Under the pieces are notes generated by a model, which was given only the letters and a program-made list of their open reading frames with translations, was not told where the DNA came from and did no database searches. DNA of 61,258 bases from Nanobdellota archaeon (GTDB taxonomy: Archaea > Nanobdellota > Nanobdellia > Woesearchaeales > GW2011-AR9). The stretch covers positions 1 to 61,258 of the forward strand of contig JBFMFP010000001.1 of the NCBI GenBank assembly GCA_040751885.1, in the 5' to 3' direction. This document shows, piece after piece, positions 2,700-54,205 of the stretch (position 1 is its first letter; each line of letters begins with the position of its first letter). The position numbers and the translations under genes are program-made.

Positions 2700-4085
2700 A
2701 TGGAAAACATAATTTTTTTAAACAGAAAAAGAGAAGCAGACTTAATAACTAAACTGAAGAAAGACAATTTTTTTATAGTTGTTAAAGGCCGAAGAAGAAT
2801 AGGCAAAACGACTTTTCTGAGGAAATTTCTTCCCAAAGGGGTATATCTCTTTATTTGGCCGAATAAATCTCTGGGGTGGGTTATGGAGAATATCTGTACT
2901 GAGCACAGTTTTCCAAAATTTAAGAATTTTAAAGACCTGCTGGCTTATCTGCTTGAGCAAAAGAAAATTGTTATTTTAGACGAATTCCAGAATTTTTTGA
3001 ACGTGGACAAATCCGTTTATGGCGAGATTCAAAAAGTCATTGACGAAAGAAAAGCCAGGAAAGAATTTTACAAGATAGCTGTTGCCGGCTCAAGTTATTC
3101 TCTGATGAATAAAGTTTTTAACGATGTTGCTTCTCCCCTTTATGGAAGGAGAACGGCCGAAATTGTTTTAGACCGCCTGCCTGTAAAAGATCTCTTTTTG
3201 GCGCTGAATACGAGCATGGAAAAATTTGTTAAGTTCTGGGCTGTTTTTGAGGGTGTGCCTTATTATTACGAGCTGATAGACTTAAAATCTTCTCCGGAAG
3301 AAAATTTTAAGAAACTTATTTTGGGAAAAGAAGCCCAGCTGCAGGACGAAGGCAAAGTAGTTCTTTCAGTGGAATTCGGCAGGGATTCCAAGACTTATAT
3401 GACTGTGCTGAGTTCAATTGCTGAAGGCAAAACTAAGCTTAATGAAATTGCCAGCATGTTTGAAAACAAAACCAATGAAGTGGGTAAATATCTTGACATT
3501 CTCAGGAATGAGTTTAAGCTTGTGAGAAGAGTAACCCCTCTTTTAGCTGATCCTCAGAAATCAAAAGAAGGCCACTATGAAGTCATTGATAACTTTCTGG
3601 ATTTTTGGTTTTGCTTTGTTGATAAAAAGAAAAGTTATCTTGAGCAGGAGCGGTTTGAAGAAGTAGAGTCTTTTTTTGGGAATAATTTTAATTCTTTTGT
3701 TGGCAGAAAGTTTGAAAAATTTATTTTATCCCTAGTCAAGTCGGAGATTTTAAAATTGGGGTTCAAAGTGGAAAAAGCCGGCCGGCAGTGGGGATCTCTT
3801 TATTCCACATCTAAAAATAAAAACCAGTACGAGATTGATCTTTGTGGAGTCAATGAGAAGAGCAAAAAAATTTTATTTGGAGAATGTAAGTGGGAAGAAA
3901 AGGCGGATGCTGAGAAATTATTAAAAGAACTTAAGGAAAAGGCAAGAAGCGTGGTCTGGAATAATACCCGCAGGAAAGAATATTACTGCATTTTCGCCAG
4001 ATCTTTTAAAGCCAAAAAACTAAAAGAAAAAAATTTATATCTGTTTGATTTGGGTGATCTGGAAAAGATTTTAAAATGGGGATAA
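2700..4085 (+). CDS. Archaeal ATPase family protein (Arch_ATPase with DUF234-like C-terminus)
   Basis: 461-aa ORF with Walker A KGRRRIGKTTFL and Walker B-like VILDEFQ. The C-terminal region resembles DUF234 (EIDLCG...GECKW). Confidence 0.75.
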   Translation: MENIIFLNRKREADLITKLKKDNFFIVVKGRRRIGKTTFLRKFLPKGVYLFIWPNKSLGWVMENICTEHSFPKFKNFKDLLAYLLEQKKIVILDEFQNFLNVDKSVYGEIQKVIDERKARKEFYKIAVAGSSYSLMNKVFNDVASPLYGRRTAEIVLDRLPVKDLFLALNTSMEKFVKFWAVFEGVPYYYELIDLKSSPEENFKKLILGKEAQLQDEGKVVLSVEFGRDSKTYMTVLSSIAEGKTKLNEIASMFENKTNEVGKYLDILRNEFKLVRRVTPLLADPQKSKEGHYEVIDNFLDFWFCFVDKKKSYLEQERFEEVESFFGNNFNSFVGRKFEKFILSLVKSEILKLGFKVEKAGRQWGSLYSTSKNKNQYEIDLCGVNEKSKKILFGECKWEEKADAEKLLKELKEKARSVVWNNTRRKEYYCIFARSFKAKKLKEKNLYLFDLGDLEKILKWG

Positions 4086-9428: not shown

Positions 9429-9842
9429 GTGGTATAAATAATTACCATTAATATAAAAATGTTTTGGTTATGGTGTAACTACCACGAAAAGACGAAAGCT
9501 TTATATAGCGGTGGCACTTTTGAGAAGCTGTGTGTCGTTGGGCTGATACTGATAAAAACGGAAAAGTCAGTCACAAAGAAGCAAAGGCAATGACTCAAAG
9601 ATGCCCTGAAAGCAACGAATATAATTGTAATTAATTTCTTTTACCGTACAGGTTTGGCAGTAGCGGTTTTAACCAACCAATATACAAAAGAGTAACATTT
9701 ATATACTTAATTGTCTTTTCTTCCTATTCCCCAAAATATTCCCCAATAATTTCATCAGGTTTCAGGTTATATCAGGAGTAAATTAAGTATAAGTACAGCT
9801 TAAAGAACATTGAAAAGCTTAATGTTTTTCGGAGGTATGAAA

Positions 9843-10127
9843 ATGAATGCAGCAAATCAAGGTTATCAACCCCTGGATTATCAACCGGGAGCAGAGATCT
9901 CTTACCAATCTCTTTTACAATCGCCAGGCTTCCCCACTGCGTGTGATGTTACTCAGGCTATTGACAGGCTTTGTTCTCCCTGCGATGGGGAAAGCGACGG
10001 GAGCTTAGACAGAATTCGCGATTTATTACCTTCTCCGGAAGAGATTGCCAGAAAAATAACGCTTATCCAAATAGGGTTTTATCCGTTGGAAAGACTAACC
10101 GGCTGCTATGGGGGAACAGGGACTTGA
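9843..10127 (+). CDS. Hypothetical small protein
   Basis: GGAGGT lies 6 nt upstream of the ATG at 9843. The ORF is GC-richer than its flanks. No motif recognised. Confidence 0.4.
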   Translation: MNAANQGYQPLDYQPGAEISYQSLLQSPGFPTACDVTQAIDRLCSPCDGESDGSLDRIRDLLPSPEEIARKITLIQIGFYPLERLTGCYGGTGT

Positions 10128-10435
10128 TTTTTTTGTTTTTTTTATATTTTGAAATTTATAATAAAATTACTTCGCTGTGTTTAAGAATATCCAACATCTT
10201 TTCGAATTTTACCTCATCTTGAGAACCAGAAGTACTTGATTATAAGACTGTTTTTTTAAAAACCTAATAAACAACAATAAAGAATAGGGTTTTTCTTATT
10301 CATGATAAGCTACAAATCCCTACAAGCATAGGACTTTTGCATAATCTTCTTTTTTATTATTATTTTTTTTATTTAAATAAAGAAATTATTCCATTCCCAA
10401 AACCTTTATATCTTCTTCACCAATTCTTAAAAGAA

Positions 10436-11807: not shown

Positions 11808-13208
11808 ATGCTTGACAAAGGAGCCTGTTTGAGATTCTATAAAAGGAAGGACATTCAGGAAGCTATAGTTGCGCATGCCCGGAATAAAGAAGTCGGGACG
11901 CGTTACGGAGATACTTTCGGCAAAAGGCCGGATGCGCTTTCTTATCCTCAGGAGATACTTAATTTGGCCATGCAGGGGGTAACTTCCTTTCACTGCAGCG
12001 AAGAGTTGTGGGAGAATCCTCTTTTTCTGGGCAGCAACTCCAGCAGGAAGGAGCTGGATGAGCTGCGCATCGGCTGGGATTTAGTGCTGGATATAGACTG
12101 CGCGATTGTTGATTACAGCAAAATATGTGCGGATTTGATTATTAAATTCCTGAGATACAATGGTGCTGAAGATATCTCCCTGAAATTTTCCGGGAATAAA
12201 GGGTTTCATATAGGGATTCCTTTTGAGGCTTTTCCAAAGCAGGTAGGCAATTCTCTGACCAAAAATCTCTTCCCGGAAGCGTCTAAGAAAATTGCCCTCT
12301 ACATTAAAGAAAACATTAAAAGGGAGCTGGCCAGAAGGATAATGGAATTTGAAAATAACGATTTTACTGCCGTGAGGCAGAAAGTGGGCTTAGACAAAGG
12401 AGGCATCATTTGCTACGAGAAAAATGAGTTTGGCGACAATGTCCCGCTGCTTGACGTAGAGCCGTTCTTAGGAATAGACACTATTTTGCTTTCTTCCCGC
12501 CATTTGTACAGGATGCCCTATTCTTTGCATGAAAAGTCCGGGCTGGTAAGCCTGCCCATAAGCCCGGATAAAGTCATAGATTTCAGCAAAGAGATGGCTA
12601 AGCCGGAAGTAATATTAACACCTATGTTTGAATTTCTCTGCCGGGAGGTGAGCAGGGAAAGTGCACGAGAACTGCTCATCAAAGCCATGGATTTTGAAGT
12701 TAAAGTAAAAGAGGACAAAGCCCGTGAGGAATTCTCTGAGAAGCATAAGCATAATAAAGACAGAAATTTTGAAGAGTTTAAGATTGAGAGTCCAATCAAA
12801 GAAGAGTTTTTTCCGCCATGCATTAAAACAGTTCTCAAGGGCATGGAGGACGGAAGGAAAAGGTCCGTCTTTGTGCTGATGAATTTTCTGGGCAAGCTCG
12901 GCTGGAGCAGGGAAGAAATTGAAGCTTATTTGCATAAATGGAACAAGGAAAAAAACAGGGAATCCTTGCGGGAAGTTTACATCAAAGGACAGATGAGCAA
13001 TTTTAAAGGTGATAAGTTACCGCCCAACTGCAATAATGAAGCTTATTACAAAGGGCTGAGGATATGCACTCCCGACAGTTTATGTACAAAAATAAAAAAT
13101 CCTGTCAATTATACTCTTTTGAAATGGAAAAGGTGGCTGAGGGAGAAGGAAGAAGGGGAAGGGAAAAAGAAAAAAACTTTAAAGACGTCGGTGAGAGCGT
13201 CTTCCTAA
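11808..13208 (+). CDS. Fused archaeo-eukaryotic primase: PriS catalytic domain plus PriL-like 4-Cys C-terminal domain
   Basis: WDLVLDIDC and SGNKGFHIGIPF are primase catalytic motifs. The C-terminal part has FPPCI plus three further Cys (PPNC, RIC, SLC) with PriL Fe-S-like spacing. Confidence 0.8.
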   Translation: MLDKGACLRFYKRKDIQEAIVAHARNKEVGTRYGDTFGKRPDALSYPQEILNLAMQGVTSFHCSEELWENPLFLGSNSSRKELDELRIGWDLVLDIDCAIVDYSKICADLIIKFLRYNGAEDISLKFSGNKGFHIGIPFEAFPKQVGNSLTKNLFPEASKKIALYIKENIKRELARRIMEFENNDFTAVRQKVGLDKGGIICYEKNEFGDNVPLLDVEPFLGIDTILLSSRHLYRMPYSLHEKSGLVSLPISPDKVIDFSKEMAKPEVILTPMFEFLCREVSRESARELLIKAMDFEVKVKEDKAREEFSEKHKHNKDRNFEEFKIESPIKEEFFPPCIKTVLKGMEDGRKRSVFVLMNFLGKLGWSREEIEAYLHKWNKEKNRESLREVYIKGQMSNFKGDKLPPNCNNEAYYKGLRICTPDSLCTKIKNPVNYTLLKWKRWLREKEEGEGKKKKTLKTSVRASS

Positions 13209-17515: not shown

Positions 17516-17639
17516 GCCCCAGTAGCTCAGTGGCTAGAGCACCTGACTTGTAGGGTGCTTTTATCTGCTATGTTTGCAAAATTTAAAAAAAGCATAGCAA
17601 GATATCAGGAGGTCGTGGGTTCAACTCCCACCTGGGGCT
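17516..17639 (+). tRNA. tRNA-Thr(UGU) with a 51-nt canonical 37/38 intron (17553-17603)
   Basis: GCCCCAG/CTGGGGC acceptor, GCTCAGTGGCTAGAGC D arm, CCTGA-CTTGTA...A-TCAGG anticodon arm, GTGGGTTCAACTCCCAC T arm. The intron contains a gctatg/catagc hairpin. Confidence 0.85.
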
Positions 17640-23566: not shown

Positions 23567-24616
23567 TTAATTCTGCTTGCAAAACTCAAGAGATTGAAGC
23601 GAGTAAAATTTACCGTCTGAGATTCCTGTTCCTTTAATACACAAATAGTAGTGTCCTGCTAAGCTGGAAATGTCTTTGTCCGGTTCAAAACTGTTGCCGT
23701 TATCTGCAGAGAAGCGTGCTTTTTGGCTGTTTTTGTCAATTTCAATAACCACTGAAAAAGGTTCTAATTTATCGCTGATGTTGGAAGTGCTGTATAAAGC
23801 GATAGTGTTGCCATTTCCGTCGGCCAAACCCCAGTCTATTGTAGCAGATTTGGGAACTTTATATTTGCCAGATATACTAAACCTACCGCCGGTATCAAAT
23901 AAATCTGCTGACTGCTGGTTAGCTGAAATTAATTTCCATAGAACGTCGTGGTTAACTCCATAAATGTCTAAATATTGACCTGTGATTACATAAGCTTCAT
24001 TTTCTAAAGTAAGACTGAATTCAGAAACTTTCTGGTTAAATTCACTCCCTTTGTCGGTCTTTAAAGGGGGAATATTGCCGCTGAAATAAGTCTGATAAAT
24101 ACAACCCCCGGCATCGTTTTCTGCGTCACCATCAGCATCTCCGCTTTCTGCGTCGGCTGCACCGGAATCAATCCCGGCTTCACTGATTTTTCCACCATCG
24201 CCGTCTACTCCGCTGTCTTGAGGGTTTTTTCCTGCATCTTTTTCTTTCTTTCCGCCGTCTTTTGGCCCTTCACTGCTTACTTGAACTTGATTTAAGGTAT
24301 CTTGATTCATCTTGTTTGGGTCCAAATAAGGTACATTGTCGGTAGGCTTCCCAACTTGATGATAATTTGCGGGCAAACCAGAATCTACGGATTCAGAATT
24401 AACAGAATGGGAATCAACAGGCAGCCCAATCCAATAACCATCTTTGCTGGGATGGGCATCGCTGCTGCTCTCTGTGCAAATGTCTTCAAGACATCTAATC
24501 TGCTGATCACCTTCGTCAGGGGAAATGTTGTTTTTCTGGCTGCAGGTAGCTATGGCAGAAGGAGCAGCCAGAGCAGCAATGAAGATAGCAACCTTACTTT
24601 GCCTGTTTAGAGCCAT
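23567..24616 (-). CDS. Secreted lipoprotein-like hypothetical protein with an acidic linker
   Basis: Signal plus lipobox-like AIATC, and a D/G/S-rich low-complexity linker. Confidence 0.6.
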   Translation of the reverse strand: MALNRQSKVAIFIAALAAPSAIATCSQKNNISPDEGDQQIRCLEDICTESSSDAHPSKDGYWIGLPVDSHSVNSESVDSGLPANYHQVGKPTDNVPYLDPNKMNQDTLNQVQVSSEGPKDGGKKEKDAGKNPQDSGVDGDGGKISEAGIDSGAADAESGDADGDAENDAGGCIYQTYFSGNIPPLKTDKGSEFNQKVSEFSLTLENEAYVITGQYLDIYGVNHDVLWKLISANQQSADLFDTGGRFSISGKYKVPKSATIDWGLADGNGNTIALYSTSNISDKLEPFSVVIEIDKNSQKARFSADNGNSFEPDKDISSLAGHYYLCIKGTGISDGKFYSLQSLEFCKQN

Positions 24617-29951: not shown

Positions 29952-31058
29952 ATGCTTGATACCATGAGAAATCTGAGCGCAGCTTTAATTTCACAGGGAA
30001 GCAAAAGTTCCCTCATGACGGCTGAAGCTATGAGGAAGTATTTTAGCCGTGTGGACATGCTCCAGCTAAAGAATGTTAAAGTCAGTCTGGGCAAGGAAAG
30101 CGGGGTATATTACGAGGGCAAACCCCTGGATTATTACGATTGTGTTTATATCAAAGGCTCATTCCGTTATGCGAATCTGCAGCGTTCAATTGCTCTCATG
30201 CTGGAAGGCAAAGTTCCCTATATGCCCTTTCCTGCAAACAGTTTTACTGTCGTCCATAACAAGCTCTTGACCCATTTAATTTTGCAGCAGCATAATATTC
30301 CCATGCCAAAAACGTTTATTTCTCCGACGACGGATGCGGCGAAAGAGCTTCTTGGGATGATAAAATATCCCCTCGTCATGAAATTTCCGCAGGGAACGCA
30401 GGGAAAGGGGGTAATGTTTGCGGATACGTTCAGCTCAGCATCTTCCTTATTGGATGCTTTAGGAGTATTAAACCAGCCGTTTATCGTTCAGGAGTATGTG
30501 GAAACCGGTGGGACGGACGTTCGAGCCCTGGTTGTAGGGGATAAAGTTGTGGCGGCAATGCGCAGGAGGGCGCAACGGGAAGAAAAAAGGGCTAATATTC
30601 ATGCCGGCGGCAATGGTGAATTGGCTGTTTTAGACAGGGAAGCAGTTGCTCTGGCTTTAAAGACGGCAAGAATTCTTGAGGTAGATATCTGTGGTGTGGA
30701 TATGTTGGAAGGCTCTTTTGGTCCCGTGGTCATAGAAGCTAACCTTTCCCCCGGGGTGCAAGGCATAAATGAAGGTGCGCTCCTGGACCTTCCCGATGAA
30801 ATCGCTAAATTTCTCTTTAAAAAGACAGAAGAAGCTTTATACAAAAAAAACAAGCAGGCGGCAGATGAAGTAATGAAGGGCCTTACTTTGGAGTCCAAAA
30901 CTCCGCCTGGCCAGAAAATAATCACCGATCTTAAGTTCCGCGGGGAGAGAATTATTCTGCCGGAATGGATTACTAAAATTACCGGATTTAATGAGCAAAA
31001 AGAGTATATAATAAAAGCTGGCAAAGGCAGGTTGGAGGTGGAAGAGAATTGGGAGTAA
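29952..31058 (+). CDS. rimK: RimK-family ATP-grasp alpha-L-glutamate ligase
   Basis: ATP-grasp blocks (PLVMKFPQGTQGKGV, VQEYVETGGTDVRALVVG, CGVDMLE). Confidence 0.8.
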   Translation: MLDTMRNLSAALISQGSKSSLMTAEAMRKYFSRVDMLQLKNVKVSLGKESGVYYEGKPLDYYDCVYIKGSFRYANLQRSIALMLEGKVPYMPFPANSFTVVHNKLLTHLILQQHNIPMPKTFISPTTDAAKELLGMIKYPLVMKFPQGTQGKGVMFADTFSSASSLLDALGVLNQPFIVQEYVETGGTDVRALVVGDKVVAAMRRRAQREEKRANIHAGGNGELAVLDREAVALALKTARILEVDICGVDMLEGSFGPVVIEANLSPGVQGINEGALLDLPDEIAKFLFKKTEEALYKKNKQAADEVMKGLTLESKTPPGQKIITDLKFRGERIILPEWITKITGFNEQKEYIIKAGKGRLEVEENWE

Positions 31059-31172
31059 GGGCTGATTTTTTAAAAAATTATAGAAGACAGCTTAATACTT
31101 GCTTATGATAATACTTGCTTATGATAAAAAATATATTTAAAAAAAGATTCTAAAAAATAAATTGATATAAAA

Positions 31173-31399
31173 GTAATACTTCAGTAACCTGAAGTTCAGC
31201 AAAGTCGTTAGGGTCACTTTGTTCCCAAGTTGCCTGACGGCAACCTAGTCTGTGAGCCACGACGATTTCCTTTACAGTTTATCGTAGGTATAACCAAAGT
31301 ATTTTCGCAGGAAATCGTACTTGTACTTCCGTAAATGGCCCTTCGTGGCTCACCTCTTGGCCAAGACGACGACTTTGCTTCACAAAGCTGAAGTATTAC
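31173..31399. mobile_element. TIR-bounded structured element, copy 1 (MITE-like or novel ncRNA)
   Basis: Perfect 12-bp termini gtaatacttcag / ctgaagtattac. Identical 8-bp atataaaa on both flanks (31165-31172 and 31400-31407). Nested internal helices such as gtgagccacga/tcgtggctcac. Homologous to 34496-34833. Confidence 0.6.
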
Positions 31400-31439
31400 A
31401 TATAAAAAATAAATTAATAAAGCATTAAACAACAAAAAA

Positions 31440-31796
31440 TTATTTCTTTTTTTTCTTTGTTACCTTTGCGGCTTTCTTTTCTTTAGCACTTTCTTCTTCA
31501 ATCACTTCTTCAGCAGGCTCTTCTTCTTCACTTTCCTGCTTTCTTTCTTGCTTTTCTTCGTCTTCTTTGTCTCTCTTCTTCCTGAACCAGATCAGGTAAA
31601 TAATCGGCAGCAAACCCAGTGTATTCAAGATTAAGATAGCTATAAACCAGCCTTTCTGCCCATTTTTTGCAGAGAACCACAGCCCAAGGCCATTCCAGAC
31701 GATGCTCCAGACGAACACTATTGCCAGCCCGAGCAGTACCTGAACAGGCAGCGTCTGAAAAGGCTGCTGGTATAAATCATAGAGTGCATTGAACAT
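31440..31796 (-). CDS. Small membrane protein with a charged C-terminal tail
   Basis: Two predicted TM helices followed by a KRDKEDEEKQERKQESEEEE tail. Confidence 0.6.
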   Translation of the reverse strand: MFNALYDLYQQPFQTLPVQVLLGLAIVFVWSIVWNGLGLWFSAKNGQKGWFIAILILNTLGLLPIIYLIWFRKKRDKEDEEKQERKQESEEEEPAEEVIEEESAKEKKAAKVTKKKKK

Positions 31797-31862
31797 AGTC
31801 TGCTTAATTTCACTTCTTCTTTTTAAATTTTTGTATAGAGAAAACTATCTTTTTGTATGTTT

Positions 31863-32798
31863 CTATTTTCTTACTTCCTTTTCTCTTTTTACTTCCCTTT
31901 TCTGTGTTTTTTTTCTTTGTTTTTTCTTTGTTTTTCTTTTAGAAGATTTAAGCGGATTGATTTTCTCCAAGTCCTCTAGAATGTCAGAGGCAATGAAGGA
32001 ATAGCCCTTTCTCTTTTTGAGCAATAAATCCCCTACATAACCGTTTATATAAGCAGCGGCTAGCGCACTCTTAAACAAATCCCCCGTTTTGGCTAAAAAG
32101 CCGACAGCCAGCCCAGCCAGAATATCCCCTGTTCCGCCTTTGGTCATGCCCTGGTTTCCTGTTCTGTTGTAAGCTATTTTATTGTTGGAAATGATGATGT
32201 CCGTAGGGCCTTTAAGCAGAAGAACGTTGTTGTTCTGCAGGAAGTAACGCAGGTTGCCTTGCAGTATTTCTGCCTTTTCCTTGGCATTGGACAGCTTTAA
32301 TTTGGGAAGAAGAAATTCCTTGCCGCTGTTAACAAGCATCATTTCCAGCTCAGTTTCATGGGGAGTAACTATACTGTTGTTAAATTCTTTAAATGAAAGC
32401 GATTTTAACGCATCGGCATCAACAACTTTAGGCTTTTGTGATTTCCTGACAAAATGCTGGCAGAACTTATCGGCTTTTCTGGTAATGCCATTGCCAATAA
32501 GCACGGCGTCAAATTTCTCCGCATATTTGATGATTTCTTTGGCGTTTTTAATATTAAATATTTTTCCTTTTACTTTGTAGGTTATTAAGTCTGGTGAGTA
32601 TTGATGCACGGCCCAGGCTACTTTTTCCGGTGCAGCTATCGTAACTAAGTCACATCCTGCCCTCAGTGCAGCCAGCCCGGCCAGAACTATTGCCCCTACA
32701 TACTCTTCAGAGCCGCCGATAATCAGAGCATGGCCATTCTCCCCCTTATGGGAAGTTTTCTTCCGCTCCATGAGGTTTTTAACGTGGTTTAAGTTCAT
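31863..32798 (-). CDS. ADP/ATP-dependent NAD(P)H-hydrate dehydratase (YjeF C-terminal type) with a Lys-rich tail
   Basis: HKGENGHALIIGGSEEYVGA and GGTGDILAGL motifs. Confidence 0.85.
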   Translation of the reverse strand: MNLNHVKNLMERKKTSHKGENGHALIIGGSEEYVGAIVLAGLAALRAGCDLVTIAAPEKVAWAVHQYSPDLITYKVKGKIFNIKNAKEIIKYAEKFDAVLIGNGITRKADKFCQHFVRKSQKPKVVDADALKSLSFKEFNNSIVTPHETELEMMLVNSGKEFLLPKLKLSNAKEKAEILQGNLRYFLQNNNVLLLKGPTDIIISNNKIAYNRTGNQGMTKGGTGDILAGLAVGFLAKTGDLFKSALAAAYINGYVGDLLLKKRKGYSFIASDILEDLEKINPLKSSKRKTKKKQRKKTQKREVKREKEVRK

Positions 32799-33206
32799 CT
32801 TTGTTGTGCCGCTTATTGTTCTTTTATTTGTTCTTTTATTATTCCTTCCTAATGACGTATTCTATTGTAATGATGTATTCACGTATTCTATTTCTATTGT
32901 AATGACATATTTCTATTGTATTCTAAGCTATTCTAAGGCATAATCTTCGACTTATGCTTTTTTTTAGCTTTATATATGTTTGTTGTAATTATCAAGTAGA
33001 AAATAAGAAAAAGAGAGTTTATTTTTAAATAAGAAGGTTCTAAATTGCTTCCTTTTTAAATAAGGGCATTTTTAATACACCTTTAATGAATTGTTTTTTG
33101 GAGAGTTTTGTAGGTTTTTTGCAAGTGTTTTTCTGTTGAACGGGCTTTGCTGATATTTTTCCGTTGAGAAAACCTTTTTAAAGAGCGCCTCTTCTTCCCC
33201 AGCTAT

Positions 33207-33441
33207 GGCCCCGTAGCTTAGCCTGGTAGAGCGCTGCTCTTATATGGGAGTGTTCTAAACAAAATCCTCCAAGCAAAGCAGAGGTCCCGAGTTCAAAGCA
33301 GATGCTACGCAGATGTCACGTCATCTGAGAGGCGAACCCTCGCTTCGCTCGGGGAAGACAAACATCCCCCTTGAGAGGCGAAGCCTACGCTGCGCTTCGG
33401 CAAGATAATAGCGTTCATCTACGAAAGTCTCGGCGGGGCCA
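33207..33441 (+). tRNA. tRNA-Ile(UAU) with a 37/38 intron and a 130-nt T-loop intron
   Basis: GGCCCCG-TA-GCTTAGCCTGGTAGAGC-G-CTGCT-CTTATA[~31 nt]A-AGCAG-AGGTC-CCGAG-TTCAAA[130 nt]T-CTCGG-CGGGGCC-A. Confidence 0.8.
33298..33427 (+). other. T-loop (59/60) intron, family 1, in tRNA-Ile (core inverted relative to the host tRNA)
   Basis: Plus-strand 33308-33354 is collinear with plus-strand 44808-44853, although the two host tRNAs are on opposite strands. Confidence 0.75.
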
Positions 33442-33518
33442 GTTTTTGTATTGTAACCGTTGTTTTAGAAAATTTATTCATTAAGAGTGCTTGAAATTCA
33501 TCTCTTTTCTTACATCTT

Positions 33519-34148
33519 TCAACACGTCTCCACAACATCCATCAGCGCAGCTGTAAACTGGACCTTCTTTACAATCGGGTGGGTGATGACATCACTGGTT
33601 TCGCCCTTGTGCAAGGTAATTACCTGCTCGGCAAGTATCTTTCCCGTGCTTTTCTTTATTATTTTAATTGGGATGAGAGGTTTGTCCCCCTTACAGTAGG
33701 CAGGCGTAGTCATTAATTTCCATTCTAATGCTCCGGCATAACTGTAACTGCCTTCTCCGAGCTTTAGGGAGTATTCTTCCCCGTCGCTGGTCTTAACAGT
33801 TACACTTGTAATTGTGCATTTCACTTCACAGTTTGTGTTATACAAATCGTTTATTTTGCCGCATTTGCCGTCAATGCATAGTAACTCGCCTGTACAATTG
33901 CTGTTGGCTTCGCATTTCAAAGGCTCGGCTGGCTTTACCGGCTCAGGAGCAGCGGATTTATTCTCTTCTGCTGTCGGTATTTTCTCCGGGGGCATTTCTT
34001 CAGCGGTTGTCGTCTTTTCTATTTCAGAAATTTTTGCGAGCTCCTCTCTTTTTTCTCCGCAGGAAACAAGAAAAATTAAGCAGGCTAAAACCAGGCAGAA
34101 CATTGCTGATGAGAAAACATTTTTTTTGGAGATATTAATTTTAATCAC
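33519..34148 (-). CDS. Secreted lipoprotein-like hypothetical protein
   Basis: Signal plus lipobox LVSC, a Pro/Glu-rich linker, and a Cys-rich module. Confidence 0.6.
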   Translation of the reverse strand: MIKINISKKNVFSSAMFCLVLACLIFLVSCGEKREELAKISEIEKTTTAEEMPPEKIPTAEENKSAAPEPVKPAEPLKCEANSNCTGELLCIDGKCGKINDLYNTNCEVKCTITSVTVKTSDGEEYSLKLGEGSYSYAGALEWKLMTTPAYCKGDKPLIPIKIIKKSTGKILAEQVITLHKGETSDVITHPIVKKVQFTAALMDVVETC

Positions 34149-34185
34149 CTTCTTTTTTTACGTCGTAATCTTAATCTGAATCAAA

Positions 34186-34370
34186 TGCGGCTGCCGGGAC
34201 TTCCAAGCTGCAACTATTTAGCTCGGTGGGCTTTATGCCCGCCATACTCGCCTAGATTGCTGGCTTTTGAACCCGGGTCACAGCCTCTCTGCGTAAGCAG
34301 AAAATAAAGCTTATCAATATTCTTTCTGCTCTTGGCAAGGCCGCATCTTGGACCACTGGACTACAGCCGC
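34186..34370 (-). tRNA. tRNA-Gly(GCC) with a 37/38 intron and a 66-nt T-loop intron
   Basis: GCGGCTG-TA-GTCCAGTGGTCCAAGAT-G-CGGCC-TTGCCA[~46 nt]A-GGCTG-TGAC-CCGGG-TTCAAA[66 nt]T-CCCGG-CAGCCGC-A. Confidence 0.8.
34200..34265 (-). other. T-loop (59/60) intron, family 2, in tRNA-Gly
   Basis: AGCCAGCAATCT..AGGCGAGTATGGCGGGCATAAAGCCCACCGAG..TTGCAGCTTGGAAG, homologous to 44577-44698. Confidence 0.75.
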
Positions 34371-34495
34371 ATAGATCAGTCCAAAATGTAGCTGATTAAT
34401 AAATTTTGTTGTGATTTGGCACAGGCCATCACTCACTTTTTGGATTGTGCCTGTGATTTCAAAATTGTTTAGGAAATGAAATCTATCTGCACCAA

Positions 34496-34833
34496 CGTAA
34501 TTATTCAGCTTCCTGAATCAAGTCATTTCATTCGTGCAGAGTCACTCTGTTCCTAGTTTGCTTACCAGCAAAAGTCAAAATGCTTAACGCATTTCGACGT
34601 TCAGCAAAGTCGTCTTGGTCGTGAATTTGGCAAAATCCTTGCAATGATTATCGTCAGTCAATCCGACGTTGTCATGGAAGGGATTTTGACATTAATTTTC
34701 AGTATATGGCTCTACCAAATTCACTTATTGACCCTGACGCAAGAAATACGAAAACTATCGTATTTCTGCGCAGAAAATAAGTCGTTGCTTATTTTCTTGC
34801 GACGACTTTGCTTCACAAAGCTGAATAATTACG
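34496..34833. mobile_element. TIR-bounded structured element, copy 2
   Basis: 14-bp termini cgtaattattcagc / gctgaataattacg. Shares a 5' module of about 70 nt and the 3' module gacgactttgcttcacaaagctgaa with copy 1. Stem covariation at 34557-34572. Confidence 0.6.
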
Positions 34834-34877
34834 CGCCAACAAAAACTTAATAAACAAACTTGGAATTTTACATTTAT

Positions 34878-35043
34878 CCCCCCTTAGTTTAGCGGCTAGA
34901 ACACTCGGCTGTAGAAATCCTTTAGAGTTGTCTGCTGACTGATATGAAAAAGGATCAGCCGTTACCGAGGGATCCCCGGTTCAAATATTGACGCTCGAGG
35001 CGACAATGCTTCGAACGGCAGTGAGAATGTCCGGGAGGGGGGA
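34878..35043 (+). tRNA. tRNA-Tyr(GUA) (C1-G72) with a 37/38 intron and a 44-nt T-loop insert
   Basis: CCCCCCT-TA-GTTTAGCGGCTAGAAC-A-CTCGG-CTGTAG[~49 nt]A-CCGAG-GGATC-CCCGG-TTCAAA[44 nt]T-CCGGG-AGGGGGG-A. Confidence 0.75.
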
Positions 35044-35140
35044 TTTAAAGGAAGGATGGTTTTCTATCCTTCTTTTTTCTTTGTCTATAAGACAATATTC
35101 TATAAGACAAAATTCTATAAGACAAACAAGTTATTATAAA

Positions 35141-35386
35141 TCACCTGTTCAACCTCACCAAAAATACTGCTGCAACTGCAATAAGTATTACAGCTACGAC
35201 CGCCGCAACAGCCGTGAACCAAGAGGCGTCTGTATCAAAAGTATCAAAACCGGAACTTGAAGCTGCCGTTGCTCCGGTAATCCCGCTGCCCTGTGTAGAA
35301 ACAACTATGCCTAAAACAGCTACGCCCAGAATAATAAACAAAATTATTAACGTCCTCTTCAGGTCTTTTTTGCTTTCTTCTTCCAT
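35141..35386 (-). CDS. Small two-TM membrane protein
   Basis: 81 aa with two hydrophobic helices flanking a Ser/Thr/Gly-rich loop. Confidence 0.5.
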   Translation of the reverse strand: MEEESKKDLKRTLIILFIILGVAVLGIVVSTQGSGITGATAASSSGFDTFDTDASWFTAVAAVVAVILIAVAAVFLVRLNR

Positions 35387-35546
35387 CTTTTCTGCACAGA
35401 CTTAATTAAGATAAATTGGCAGAAAAATAAGGAAATATAAAAACATTGTTCTTTTTTTTTGCGTGTTTTCTTTTTTTATATTCGTTTTGTATTTAACTAT
35501 TTACTATTTATTTACTTAGGAATTATGGACACCCCTCTGTATTTAA

Positions 35547-35960
35547 CTAAACAACTCTCACTTCTTTATTAAAAAACCTGCTTACTGCTCGGTTAATCAT
35601 CTTCAGATTTTTCCCGCCACGGCCAATTAAAATACTTTTGGTTTTCCTGCTGCTGTCTTTGATAACAATCCCGTTGTTCTCTTCAACAATCTCTTCAACA
35701 CTTGCCGGGTAAATCACATTCCTTACAAAGTCAACTGCATTATCGCGGTATTCAATAATCTTAACCCTTTTTCCTAGCTCGTTCTGCACCCTTCTGATAT
35801 TTATCCCGCCCTTGCCTATGGCTCTGCCCAATTCTCCTACACGGACAACAAAATAAATTGTCTCCTCGTCTTTAAAGCAGTCTTTGACATGGGCGCCAGT
35901 GATTCTTTCCATTATAGAAGACAATGCAAATGCTTCCTGATCAAGTATAAGTCGTTTCAT
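35547..35960 (-). CDS. nusA: Archaeal NusA-like KH-domain protein
   Basis: Two KH GxxG motifs (GKGGINIRR, GRGGKNLKM). Start MKRLIL overlaps the L30e stop (ATGA). Confidence 0.8.
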   Translation of the reverse strand: MKRLILDQEAFALSSIMERITGAHVKDCFKDEETIYFVVRVGELGRAIGKGGINIRRVQNELGKRVKIIEYRDNAVDFVRNVIYPASVEEIVEENNGIVIKDSSRKTKSILIGRGGKNLKMINRAVSRFFNKEVRVV

Positions 35961-49910: not shown

Positions 49911-49919
49911 CCATCAACC

Positions 49920-50092
49920 GGCACAGGATATTTCGTGAGTGATTGCTGGAGTCAGACCAACCGAAAACTCGCTGTTCTTTAAAATGTATATTAACTGTAT
50001 TTTTGGAGCGTTTTCGGACCTTAATCTTCAGTATATTGTCCCCTTTGTCGGACATTCTTGGCCTTGCCATCACTCACTTTTTGGACTGTGCC
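49920..50092 (+). ncRNA. Candidate structured RNA or inserted element in the 5' region of the M50 protease gene
   Basis: ggcacag (49920) pairs with ctgtgcc (50086). gtgagtgat (49935) pairs with atcactcac (50069). Inner stem ccgaaaac/gttttcgg. The 3' 27-mer recurs at 34425-34451. Confidence 0.25.
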
Positions 50093-50137
50093 CATCAACC
50101 GCACCTTTTAAATACCAGTAATTGTTTTCCTGAGGTG

Positions 50138-51331
50138 ATGGATGGCTCTACGAAATTATTTAAAATATTTGGGATAGACGTTCAGCTGCATTTTTCCTGG
50201 TGGCTGATTTTTGTGTTATTGGCTTGGAGCCTGTCCAGCGCATTCTTTCCCCAGAGCTTTCCCGGGCTGAGTGTTAAGATGTACTGGCTGATGGGAATCG
50301 TTGCTTCACTGCTGCTGTTTGTTTCTGTCCTCCTTCATGAATTAAGCCATTCTTTGGTTGCCAAGGCCAGAAAGATAAAAGTAGAAAGTATAACTCTTTT
50401 TTTCTTTGGCGGAGTTGCCGGAATAGATGATGAAGATATGAAAGCAGGCTCAGAGTTTCTTATGGCTATTGCCGGCCCGTTATTTTCCTTGTTTTTGGCG
50501 TTAGTGTTTTTCCTGATTTACAAGTTTAATGGCAACGTTTTCTGGGCGGCTATAACGATGTACCTTTACCAGCTGAATTTTATCCTCGCTATTTTTAATT
50601 TAATTCCGGGATTCCCGTTGGATGGGGGAAGAGCGTTTAGGGCAATTTTGCATGCTTATTACCATGACTTAAAGAAAGCGACGAAGATTGCTGCCAGCAG
50701 CGGGCGCATTTTTGCCATTTTTTTAATCGTCTTGGGAATTTTTGGATTGCTCAGTGGCGCTGCCCAGGGATTATGGTTAATTTTCCTGGGCGGATTTCTT
50801 TATTTCATCGCCGGGTTAAGTTATGAGCAGGTTGTTTTGAAAGATGCTCTCAGCAGGATTAAAGTTAAGGAATTGCTGAAAGCAAAATATCCTGAAGTTA
50901 GTTCAGAGACGTATTTTTCTGATTTGCTGAAAGAATTTGCCAACAGGGGAGAAGATATGTTTGTGGTGGAAGGGTTGAAAAGGAAGGGTTCTGCAATGAA
51001 AGGCAAGAGCTTTATCGGTATGCTCGATTTGAAAGCGTTAGATAAAATGCCTCCGCAGCTGCAGAAGACGGTTAAATTGAAGCAGCTGGCTACGCCTGCA
51101 GATAAAGTAGCTTCTGTCAATAAAGAAGACACCGCTTATGCTGCTTTCAAAAGCATTACAAAACAAAAAAGCGATTTCGTTGCCGTTATGGACAAAAAGA
51201 AATTCTTAGGTTTTGTAACAAAGAAAGTGCTTATGAACAGCCTGATTTGGTCATTGAAGTATGGGGCTGATAAAGAGAACGACGTTGTGGTTAAGAACAG
51301 AAAAAAATTGGGAACAAAAAAAAACGGTTAA
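50138..51331 (+). CDS. Site-2 protease family (M50) metalloprotease with CBS domains
   Basis: HELSHSLVA (HExxH) and NLIPGFPLDGGR. The start at MDGSTKLF follows GAGGTG. The upstream 65 codons of the ORF-track call are non-coding-like. Confidence 0.85.
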   Translation: MDGSTKLFKIFGIDVQLHFSWWLIFVLLAWSLSSAFFPQSFPGLSVKMYWLMGIVASLLLFVSVLLHELSHSLVAKARKIKVESITLFFFGGVAGIDDEDMKAGSEFLMAIAGPLFSLFLALVFFLIYKFNGNVFWAAITMYLYQLNFILAIFNLIPGFPLDGGRAFRAILHAYYHDLKKATKIAASSGRIFAIFLIVLGIFGLLSGAAQGLWLIFLGGFLYFIAGLSYEQVVLKDALSRIKVKELLKAKYPEVSSETYFSDLLKEFANRGEDMFVVEGLKRKGSAMKGKSFIGMLDLKALDKMPPQLQKTVKLKQLATPADKVASVNKEDTAYAAFKSITKQKSDFVAVMDKKKFLGFVTKKVLMNSLIWSLKYGADKENDVVVKNRKKLGTKKNG

Positions 51332-52897: not shown

Positions 52898-54205
52898 TTA
52901 TTTTATCTTTATTTCAATTTTTAACACTTCTTTAATCTTCTCTGCTAATTGCTCTTTGGTTTTTTCCAGATTTATTTTTTCAAGATGGTTCTCCGTTGCA
53001 GAAATTTCTTCTTTGATTGTTTCAATTTTATTTTCAGATCCAAGAATTTCTTTTTTTGTTTCTTCAATATCGTCTGCGGTTTTATTTTCGTGGATATTTT
53101 TAGAGATTACCTCTTTCTCTTTCATTATATTTTTTCCGTCTGCAGCCAGATTCTGTAAATAACCGCTTTCACTTAATTCGGTTAACTCCAGGAATTTTTT
53201 CTTCTGCTTATCATCAAACTGCAGGCTTCTAAGGTTTTTCTTTATGCTGTTTAATGTTGAAATTATTTTGAGCTCCGAATCCCTCCAAAATGCCTCGGTG
53301 CTGTTGCTTAAATACTCTTTAACCAGTTTGCTCTCTCCGCTCTCCAAAGCTATTTTCTCATACTTCTTGAGGGCTTTGTCCAGTTTGGAAAAAAATGAAA
53401 AGGTCTTGTATTCAATATCTTTGAATTGCTGCTCCAGCCGGGATAATTTTTCTTTAAGTTTCAGATATTCTTGGTATTCGCTGCTTTCAGTTAATTTTTT
53501 GAGCTTTTCTTCGTTTTTTCTTTTTTTGTTTTCTTCTGCTGCCAATTCCTCCTTTTTAAGTTTTAGCTCTTCTTCCAATCTCTCTTTTTTTCCCAGTTCT
53601 CCATTTAGCAGGTTAATCATGCCATCTATGTTTTTCAATTCGGCAATTTTGTTTTCAGCCGCATACTCATTAAATCTTTTGACTTCTCTATTCAGCTCTC
53701 TAAGGAGCTTAAACAATTCTTCCACCGGCTCAAAGAACAAATGCTGCGCGGCCTGATAGCTTTTGGCAGTCCTTTTTGCCAGCAGGTCAAGCTCTCCGTT
53801 TAACTTTTCATTGAATAAAAGTGCTTCTTCGTAATCGCTTATTGTGGAGAATCTTATTGTGGGGAATTTTTCTTTTGGTAGAATTTTGGATGCAAGATTT
53901 TGCGCAAAGCGCTCAATTTCTGCAGCATAATGATCCTTATGCCCTATAACTATATTCTTTATTCTCTCCTGGACGTTGCGGTGCTCTTTGGACATTTCTG
54001 CTTCTTTCAGCTGTGATGCTTTTTCTTCCATTTGGAAGTTTAATTCTTCAATCTGCCGGAAGTATTCAAGGATAAAGCTGCTAGAATTTAAGCGGGTCGC
54101 CTGTTCGTTTAGCCATTGTTTCATGTCTTTTGGGAGGAGTTCAACTAAAGCGGGCTTTTGCTCAGCGAATAATTTAGCAGACAGTTTTTTTAAAAAATTA
54201 ATCAT
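52898..54205 (-). CDS. Long coiled-coil protein (hypothetical)
   Basis: 435 aa, K/E/L-rich with heptad-like composition throughout. Confidence 0.6.
   Translation of the reverse strand: MINFLKKLSAKLFAEQKPALVELLPKDMKQWLNEQATRLNSSSFILEYFRQIEELNFQMEEKASQLKEAEMSKEHRNVQERIKNIVIGHKDHYAAEIERFAQNLASKILPKEKFPTIRFSTISDYEEALLFNEKLNGELDLLAKRTAKSYQAAQHLFFEPVEELFKLLRELNREVKRFNEYAAENKIAELKNIDGMINLLNGELGKKERLEEELKLKKEELAAEENKKRKNEEKLKKLTESSEYQEYLKLKEKLSRLEQQFKDIEYKTFSFFSKLDKALKKYEKIALESGESKLVKEYLSNSTEAFWRDSELKIISTLNSIKKNLRSLQFDDKQKKKFLELTELSESGYLQNLAADGKNIMKEKEVISKNIHENKTADDIEETKKEILGSENKIETIKEEISATENHLEKINLEKTKEQLAEKIKEVLKIEIKIK

Follow-up and report, generated by a model that had tools for sequence, protein, structure and literature searches.

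We describe a 227-bp element, element A (31173–31399, plus strand), in a 61,258-nucleotide stretch of DNA (contig JBFMFP010000001.1 of GenBank assembly GCA_040751885.1; hereafter, the window) from a Nanobdellota archaeon of the Woesearchaeales. We conclude, with a probability of roughly 0.8, that element A is a transposon-type insertion in a woesearchaeal (DPANN) chromosome, namely a non-autonomous DNA transposon of the kind called a MITE, short for miniature inverted-repeat transposable element. The family to which it belongs has terminal inverted repeats (TIRs), 8-bp duplications flanking all four known members, no coding capacity and diverged copies in two genomes, and an empty site was found for a sister family. 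On these grounds the MITE-like insertion that was one of two options in a first-pass annotation, the other being a novel structured RNA, is upheld. That annotation had named two outcomes that would speak against an insertion, an absence of both other copies and empty-site evidence, and a match to a known Rfam family; neither occurred. What it had overlooked is that the position of insertion is fixed relative to promoters.

Two related elements in the window

The tips of element A, GTAATACTTCAG (31173–31184) and CTGAAGTATTAC (31388–31399), are exact reverse complements over 12 bp, and the target-site duplication consists of an 8-mer, ATATAAAA, that is identical (8/8) on the left (31165–31172) and on the right (31400–31407). 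Both features had been noted before and were recovered when we read the sequence directly. The left end carries a sub-terminal hairpin (CTTCAG-TAAC-CTGAAG), and inner boxes lie at 31195–31208 (TTCAGCAAAGTCGT) and 31367–31392 (CGACGACTTTGCTTCACAAAGCTGAA). Five internal helices that had been picked out from the letters are all present in the minimum-free-energy fold of the element. Its GC content is 0.45–0.46, against 0.28–0.34 in flanking intervals that partly overlap it, consistent with the earlier description of a GC-richer segment in AT-rich intergenic surroundings. There is also, as annotated, no credible open reading frame (ORF) inside: the only ORFs within the two elements of the window are one of 73 aa with a TTG start on the minus strand of element A and one of 68 aa on the plus strand of element B, and none is common to both. 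The neighbouring genes are convergent, their ends lying at 31058 (RimK-like) and 31440 (DUF5652). Just to the left of the element, the intergenic DNA at 31094–31125 holds a short tandem direct repeat, two copies of aatacttgcttatgat.

Element B (34497–34832, plus strand; 336 bp) is the longer copy that the first-pass annotation had recognized; its existence is confirmed, and the coordinates given for it (34496–34833) were off by one at each end. The annotation did not mention its 8-bp direct flanks, GCACCAAC (34489–34496) and GCGCCAAC (34833–34840), which match at seven of eight positions. The termini of element B, GTAATTATTCAGCTT and AAGCTGAATAATTAC, form a perfect 15-bp inverted repeat that differs from the tips of element A at positions 6–7, on both arms. 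A 26-mer at the right end and a 15-mer close to the left end are identical in the two elements. Their interiors have diverged yet form the same helices, to which element B adds extra hairpins. Element B is situated between two divergent tRNA genes.

Nested in element B, and not present in element A, is a 62-nt module (34739–34800) that runs from GCAAGAAA to TTTCTTGC and consists of two perfect hairpins, whose loops are AAAACTAT and TCGTTG. Homologous modules, in which the loops are conserved and the stems covary, are found in two relatives: in an intergenic array of five hairpins of L036 (12476–12553), and twice in L045 (2723–2800 and 895–975), where the copies sit in T-loop introns of two tRNA genes, in both orientations. 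This looks like a separate small palindromic mobile module.

Further copies in a second archaeal genome

Further copies had been listed by the first-pass annotation among the things to look for. A metagenome scan with a pattern that combined the tip and the inner box yielded 12 loci, two of which, L025 and L032, carry a genuine 190-bp homologue, in opposite orientation; the locus with this copy was found in three samples (L025, L032 and L043). L025 and L032 are archaeal, since they carry GatE, and have no genes in common with the window. The 190-bp homologue is flanked by GATGGGCT and GATAGGCT (7/8), and L025, an apparently woesearchaeal metagenome contig, has a second copy, of 165 bp (3357–3521), flanked by GCAAAACA (8/8).

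These copies, together with elements A and B, make up family 1, which comprises four independent insertions in two genomes, the 61-kb window and the 7.5-kb locus L025 contributing two each, ranging in size from 165 to 336 bp. All four have perfect tips of 12–16 bp, beginning with GTAAT, and an imperfect repeat that extends to about 35 bp and includes a conserved inner box. The terminal motif of the family is GTAATNNTTCAG, to which GGCACAG and GTATGTGCATAG correspond in the sister families described below. By nhmmer, element A scores 64 bits against the 190-bp copy of L025 and 20 bits against element B.

The other ten of the 12 metagenome matches are chance matches in apparent coding DNA. A scan of one genome per species returned 23 matches, about the number estimated by chance, and the sole archaeal match lies inside what appears by eye to be a DNA ligase gene. 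Scans of viral contigs gave no matches or only chance matches for the family, and no family-1 copy was found in the relatives retrieved via RpoA''. A 330-bp candidate in L054 turned out to be merely a tRNA gene region.

As a control that makes no use of the family's sequence, we looked for inverted repeats matching at 10 or more of 12 positions around a perfect 8-bp terminal seed, 60–900 nt apart, with flanks identical at 7 or more of 8 positions. Over 363 kb (the window and the archaeal loci), this procedure returned the elements described above and, beyond those, only a single unrelated element that shares their architecture; there were zero false positives. Thus, the combination of TIRs and matching flanks is far beyond chance.

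Sister families and an empty site

Two sister families, in which the family-blind scan revealed the same geometry, have termini unlike those of family 1 and the same architecture; one is represented in L036, a relative, and the other by two insertions in the window. Family 2 is a 118-bp element of L036 (12736–12853) with tips GTATGTGCATAG and flanks ACGTTTCC. Family 3 includes a 173-bp MITE (49920–50092, or 49912–50100 with its flanks, CATCAACC; plus strand), which has a bipartite terminal repeat, GGCACAG-N8-GTGAGTGATkGC, and a fold with z = -5.0. Its second member is a mini-element of only 34 bp, GGCACAGG...TTGTGCC (34418–34451, or 34410–34459 with its flanks, TGTGATTT). The mini-element is a deletion derivative, identical in its right part to the right end of the longer, 173-bp element. 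The flanks of all three sister insertions match at 8/8 positions. Across the families, the duplication is constant at 8 bp and its sequence is different at every site.

An empty site is available for family 2. The promoter of the ribosomal protein S12 gene in L039, a relative of L036, has no insert and reads TTTCC, GTTATC, TTTATAAA and TAA in order. When the element and one copy of ACGTTTCC are removed from L036 in silico, the result matches the L039 promoter at 21 of 22 positions across the junction (TTTCCGwTATCTTTATAAATAA). The check for empty sites proposed in the first-pass annotation thus gave a positive result for a sister family; for element A, element B and the L025 copies, the searchable data include no sufficiently close genome.

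Directly upstream of the family-2 MITE, L036 carries a 177-nt unit of five adjacent perfect hairpins with a 17-bp closing stem, followed by a long hairpin of 83–93 nt (12421–12690 in all). The fold of this region has z = -11.7.

Insertions lie at a fixed distance from TATA boxes

At all seven independent insertions, which represent three families and three genomes, one copy of the duplicated 8-mer is separated by a 6-nt spacer from a TATA-type box, TTAATAAA, TTTATAAA, TTTAAATA or TTTATTAA, which places the element exactly 14 bp upstream of the box. The insertion position is the upstream edge of the TFB-recognition element (BRE). Most of the spacer six-mers are A-rich, and in family 1 it is the right duplicate, in window orientation, that precedes them. 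Element A is followed by AATAAA and TTAATAAA (31408–31421, plus strand), in the same geometry as the six other insertions, and element B by AAAAAC and, again, TTAATAAA (34841–34854, plus strand). For the L025 copies, the pairs are AAAACA with TTTATAAA (190-bp copy) and GCAATA with TTTAAATA (165-bp copy). The family-2 element of L036 is followed by GATATC and the TTTATAAA box of the S12 promoter. In family 3, GCACCT and TTTAAATA follow the 173-bp element (50101–50114, plus strand), and ACAAAA and TTTATTAA (34396–34409, minus strand) directly adjoin the duplicated 8-mer of the 34-bp element.

For all insertions except that of element A, a gene transcribed away from the element has its tRNA 5' end or ATG about 31–33 nt beyond the TATA box. 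The box next to element B, at 34847, is 31 nt before position 1 of a tRNA gene (34878), and that next to the 34-bp element is 33 nt from position 1 of a minus-strand tRNA gene. The box beyond the 173-bp element belongs to an M50 peptidase gene, the leaderless ATG of which (50138) is at TATA +31. At the 165-bp copy, the box (3537) and a leaderless ATG (3567) are 30–31 nt apart, and the palindromic box at the 190-bp copy serves a divergent gene of 181 aa. The other tRNA genes of the window have a box 32–33 nt before position 1. Box and start positions pair as 33175/33207, 34403/34370, 34847/34878 and 50107/50138 in the window and as 3537/3567 in L025. This constant distance suggests that mRNAs are leaderless and that tRNAs are possibly transcribed without a 5' leader, as has been reported for Nanoarchaeum.

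A box of the form TTWAWWWA occurs at that exact offset, on either side, for 0.0095 of intergenic positions. For the four insertions that were found after the rule had been stated, this gives p ~ 8e-9. Relaxed scans for elements returned only poor chance pairs, none of which obeys the spacing rule. The orientation of the element relative to the TATA box is the same in all four members of family 1 (p = 0.125), while family 3 has one insertion each way; since family 3 is mixed, we claim no orientation bias. The fixed spacing suggests that the elements find, or are kept at, a safe spot beside promoters.

Paired changes in the predicted fold

Element A is predicted to fold into a stable structure on the plus strand (-78.6 kcal/mol, z = -6.1, with none of 200 shuffled sequences as stable) and equally on the minus strand (-81.7 kcal/mol, z = -5.8). 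The fold of element B has z = -11.5. In all copies, the folds of the two strands are about equally good and their counts of G-U pairs similar, and there is no consistent strand asymmetry. Because the fold is equally good on both strands, it more likely serves DNA than a dedicated RNA.

A comparison of element A with the 190-bp copy of L025 shows 49 shared predicted pairs. Ten paired columns differ between the two, and these amount to four double compensations, two wobble changes and no broken pairs; identity is 90% in paired columns, against 57% in unpaired ones. When ten substitutions were placed at random, none of 200,000 trials preserved all pairs. The inner box of the 165-bp copy has likewise changed on both arms, where AAAG has become GTTA and CTTT has become TAAC, respectively. 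One caveat applies to the terminal 35 bp or so, where matched changes of the arms would also be expected from two ends co-evolving with one transposase. The deeper helices, 50–90 nt from the tips, are harder to explain in this way. We infer that a rod-like, branched fold is probably under selection, and that it may act at the DNA level, either in recognition of the terminal and sub-terminal regions or as a hairpin or cruciform intermediate. Strict compensatory evolution of this kind makes the helices a clean system in which to ask what a transposon needs a fold for.

Proposed origin and targeting of the elements

Element A and its relatives would be moved by a transposase encoded elsewhere that recognizes the GTAAT...ATTAC tips and the sub-terminal boxes, cuts the target with an 8-bp stagger and inserts the element, generating the 8-bp duplication. 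The GTAA tip and the length of the duplication hint that mobilization in trans may involve a DDE transposase, possibly one like those of the IS66/ISBst12 group. Terminal repeats of the IS66 family begin with GTAAGCG, and these elements produce 8-bp direct repeats (PMC11946415); ISDge4, a member of the single-ORF ISBst12 group, combines the terminal repeat GTAACTGCTCAGCA with a direct repeat of 8 bp (PMC12898284). Family 1 shares with them the GTAA start and the 8-bp target duplication, and its tip, GTAATACTTCAGCT, agrees with ISDge4 GTAACTGCTCAGCA at 9 of 14 positions, including GTAA and TCAGC. In contrast, the sister families, which have the same geometry, start with GTAT (family 2) and GGCA (family 3). 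We know of no IS66 element that inserts at a fixed distance from promoters. An IS66/ISBst12 origin of family 1 is thus a tentative lead and no assignment.

Among known MITEs, the Correia/NEMIS elements of Neisseria, ERIC, RUP and the QMITEs of Coxiella are likewise short, non-coding, intergenic sequences with TIRs, which form long, stable stem-loops as transcripts or as DNA, and such structured bacterial MITEs often affect neighbouring promoters (reviewed in PMC10969869). QMITE2 differs in having duplications of 7–9 bp (PMC10969869). Unlike family 1, the structured bacterial MITEs exist as many near-identical copies, and no fixed spacing to a promoter core has been reported for them. Correia elements duplicate TA. 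The archaeal MITEs of Sulfolobus (SM1–SM4), Halobacterium and Haloquadratum resemble family 1 in being non-autonomous and chromosomal and in having TIRs. A high density of MITEs has been reported in a Woesearchaea genome (PMC11602168). Neither family 1 nor compensatory helix evolution or the promoter-edge position is reported in PMC10969869, PMC11602168 or the other literature that we searched.

MITEs as such, structured ones included, are ordinary and familiar from bacteria and some archaea; what the literature searched does not describe is an insertion point that is fixed with respect to the archaeal core promoter. A speculative explanation, which we consider less likely than not when set against sequence recognition or selection, is that at least three woesearchaeal MITE families are inserted by transposases that read the TBP/TFB-bound, bent promoter and leave a 6-nt gap between the 8-bp duplication and the TATA box. 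More generally, the fixed position probably reflects a choice of target at the upstream edge of the BRE, for which the transposase would read either the A-rich BRE and TATA sequence or DNA bent by TBP and TFB. Insertions made there may persist because the landing site harms neither promoter nor gene, in a genome with almost no spare DNA.

The closest functional analogy is with Ty3 of yeast and TRE of Dictyostelium, retrotransposons that are targeted to RNA polymerase III promoters through TFIIIB/TFIIIC. These, too, insert a short and fixed distance away from a promoter to which TBP and a TFB/TFIIB-like factor are bound, have tRNA genes among their targets and find a safe haven in a compact genome. 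They differ in being eukaryotic long-terminal-repeat (LTR) or non-LTR retroelements with an integrase or reverse transcriptase, whereas the elements described here are archaeal and DNA transposon-like. Here, moreover, insertion is upstream of the BRE and not at the start site, and guidance by proteins is only a proposal. Were insertion indeed directed by the promoter complex, these MITEs would be a prokaryotic DNA-transposon counterpart of Ty3/TRE targeting and would exemplify a safe-haven strategy for mobile DNA in ultra-compact genomes. If it is the transposase that sets the position, targeting to TBP/TFB-type promoters exists outside eukaryotes, and the persistence of transposons in DPANN genomes with almost no non-essential DNA would be explained. 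In practice, the elements can serve as markers of promoters and of transcription start sites in archaea that have not been cultivated; here they correct the start of the M50 peptidase gene.

Several points weigh against these interpretations. Family 1 has few copies, and their age and divergence are not those of a recent MITE burst. The first-pass annotation had suggested looking for a partner insertion sequence; neither an autonomous partner nor a transposase gene, of the IS66 (TnpC) type or any other, came to light in the window, among the 12 metagenome matches or among the matches listed by the scans of public DNA. Since families 2 and 3 start with GTAT and GGCA, the geometry is not tied to an IS66-type GTAA tip, which keeps that assignment tentative. 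There is no empty site for element A, the nearest relatives being only about 78% identical in RpoA''. The TATA-like box of element A has no gene downstream of it, and a transcript from it would be antisense to the DUF5652 gene (31440–31796). With respect to the spacing rule, the sample consists of only seven insertions in three genomes, and the TATA motif and offset were derived from the first three cases. Lastly, the helices were predicted from the same sequences in which compensations were counted.

Alternative explanations

The elements could have arrived by transposition and since been domesticated, such that the conserved fold now serves the host and the spacing is kept by selection. Possible roles include a barrier or terminator against read-through into the promoter, or a structured RNA or DNA binding platform. 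Consistent with this idea, pairing is clearly under purifying selection while loops drift, the copies are old and still intact, all are intergenic at promoter edges, and element A is nearer to the copy in another genome than to element B in its own. We nevertheless consider domestication unlikely. The same spacing recurs in three unrelated families, for which a mechanism of insertion is an easier explanation than three separate domestications, and it is kept by the nearly structure-less 34-bp deletion derivative. Furthermore, the fold has no strand preference and runs of T after the element are not consistently found. Random insertion, followed by selection that retains only these positions, fits less well than targeted insertion, given the exact 6-nt spacing in three families and in the 34-bp derivative.

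Much less probable is a family of stand-alone structured non-coding RNA genes, with a closing helix and variable inserted hairpins, in which the flanking 8-mers are incidental or act as processing signals. The very stable folds (z = -6 to -12), the covarying base pairs and a GC content above that of the AT-rich intergenic surroundings are all features that such genes would have. However, the two strands fold equally well with similar G-U counts, an RNA gene gives no reason for direct repeats of 8 bp, variable in sequence, at either side, and an insert-free orthologous promoter exists for a sister family. No match to Rfam 15 was found on the elements at the gathering score across the whole window, or overlapping either of them at E <= 10 in the interval 30800–35300, which answers a check proposed in the first-pass annotation. 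The sole conserved TATA box (TTWATAAA) lies 22 nt from the end of the element, and a start about 31 nt on would fall 9–10 nt inside the closing stem. We rejected this box as the element's own promoter, since it is outside the duplication and is correctly spaced for an outward-facing gene at element B, both L025 copies, L036 and family 3; in six of the seven cases, it is demonstrably the promoter of that neighbour. The structured-RNA option of the annotation is thus not supported, given the lack of an Rfam match, the lack of strand asymmetry and a nearby TATA box that serves an outward-pointing neighbour.

We also discarded RNase P RNA, signal recognition particle (SRP) RNA, C/D or H/ACA RNA and retron RNA, whose defining motifs are absent and for which there is no Rfam match, as well as attC or dif sites, hairpin ends of the IS200/IS605 type and bulge-helix-bulge introns, whose defining motifs are also absent. 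That the elements are archaeal intron-like (bulge-helix-bulge) sequences or cassettes inserted by a site-specific integrase is hardly credible, even in a host rich in large introns at unusual tRNA positions and with the hairpin modules of element B recurring in tRNA introns of related genomes: the 12–16-bp helix of the termini is continuous and lacks the two 3-nt bulges around a 4-bp helix that mark a bulge-helix-bulge border, direct-repeat flanks cannot pair, the elements lie in untranscribed DNA upstream of promoters, and the duplicated 8-mer is different at each site, unlike an integrase core site.

Other features of the window

The window contains the cluster rpoA'-rpoA''-L30e-NusA, with rpoB' and rpoB'' upstream, the DUF5652 gene and multi-intron tRNA genes; the RpoA'' proteins of the next relatives are 78% identical or less. 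In those relatives that have the region 3' of NusA (among L036, L039, L040 and L044–L065), forward-strand S12 and S7 genes come next. In the window, the corresponding region (34100–35600) holds three intron-rich tRNA genes, two MITEs and an ORF of 209 aa of unknown function.

We read by hand the tRNA gene that is transcribed away from element B (34878–35043, plus strand; acceptor stem CCCCCCT/AGGGGGG). It has introns in the anticodon region and the T-loop and was missed by ARAGORN and Rfam. Introns are present in all the tRNA genes seen, at 17516–17639, 33207–33445, about 34186–34370 (minus strand) and 34878–35043, some of them longer than 100 nt and some in the T-loop. ARAGORN reported zero tRNAs in the window because every tRNA gene seen there has introns, and Rfam detected only one at the gathering score.

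The mechanically called ORF of the M50 peptidase (49943–51331) extends across the family-3 element from a TTG start at 49943; translation probably begins instead at the ATG that lies 31 nt beyond the TATA box (50138). Elsewhere, tandem direct repeats occur in intergenic DNA at about 32850–32930 (gtattctattgtaatga-like units) and about 35083–35126 (three copies of tctataagacaa). ORFs of 435 aa (52898–54205, minus strand) and 349 aa (23567–24616, minus strand) have no Pfam or NCBIfam match, and no inverted repeats flank the former. A single 466-aa ORF at 11808–13208 matches the families of both the small and the large subunit of archaeal/eukaryotic DNA primase and is an apparent fused primase. 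Finally, an unrelated IMG/VR contig, L042, has a regular series of GCGGGCG...CATTGCTG repeats, one about every 72 nt (9717–10141), which looks like a clustered regularly interspaced short palindromic repeat (CRISPR) array.

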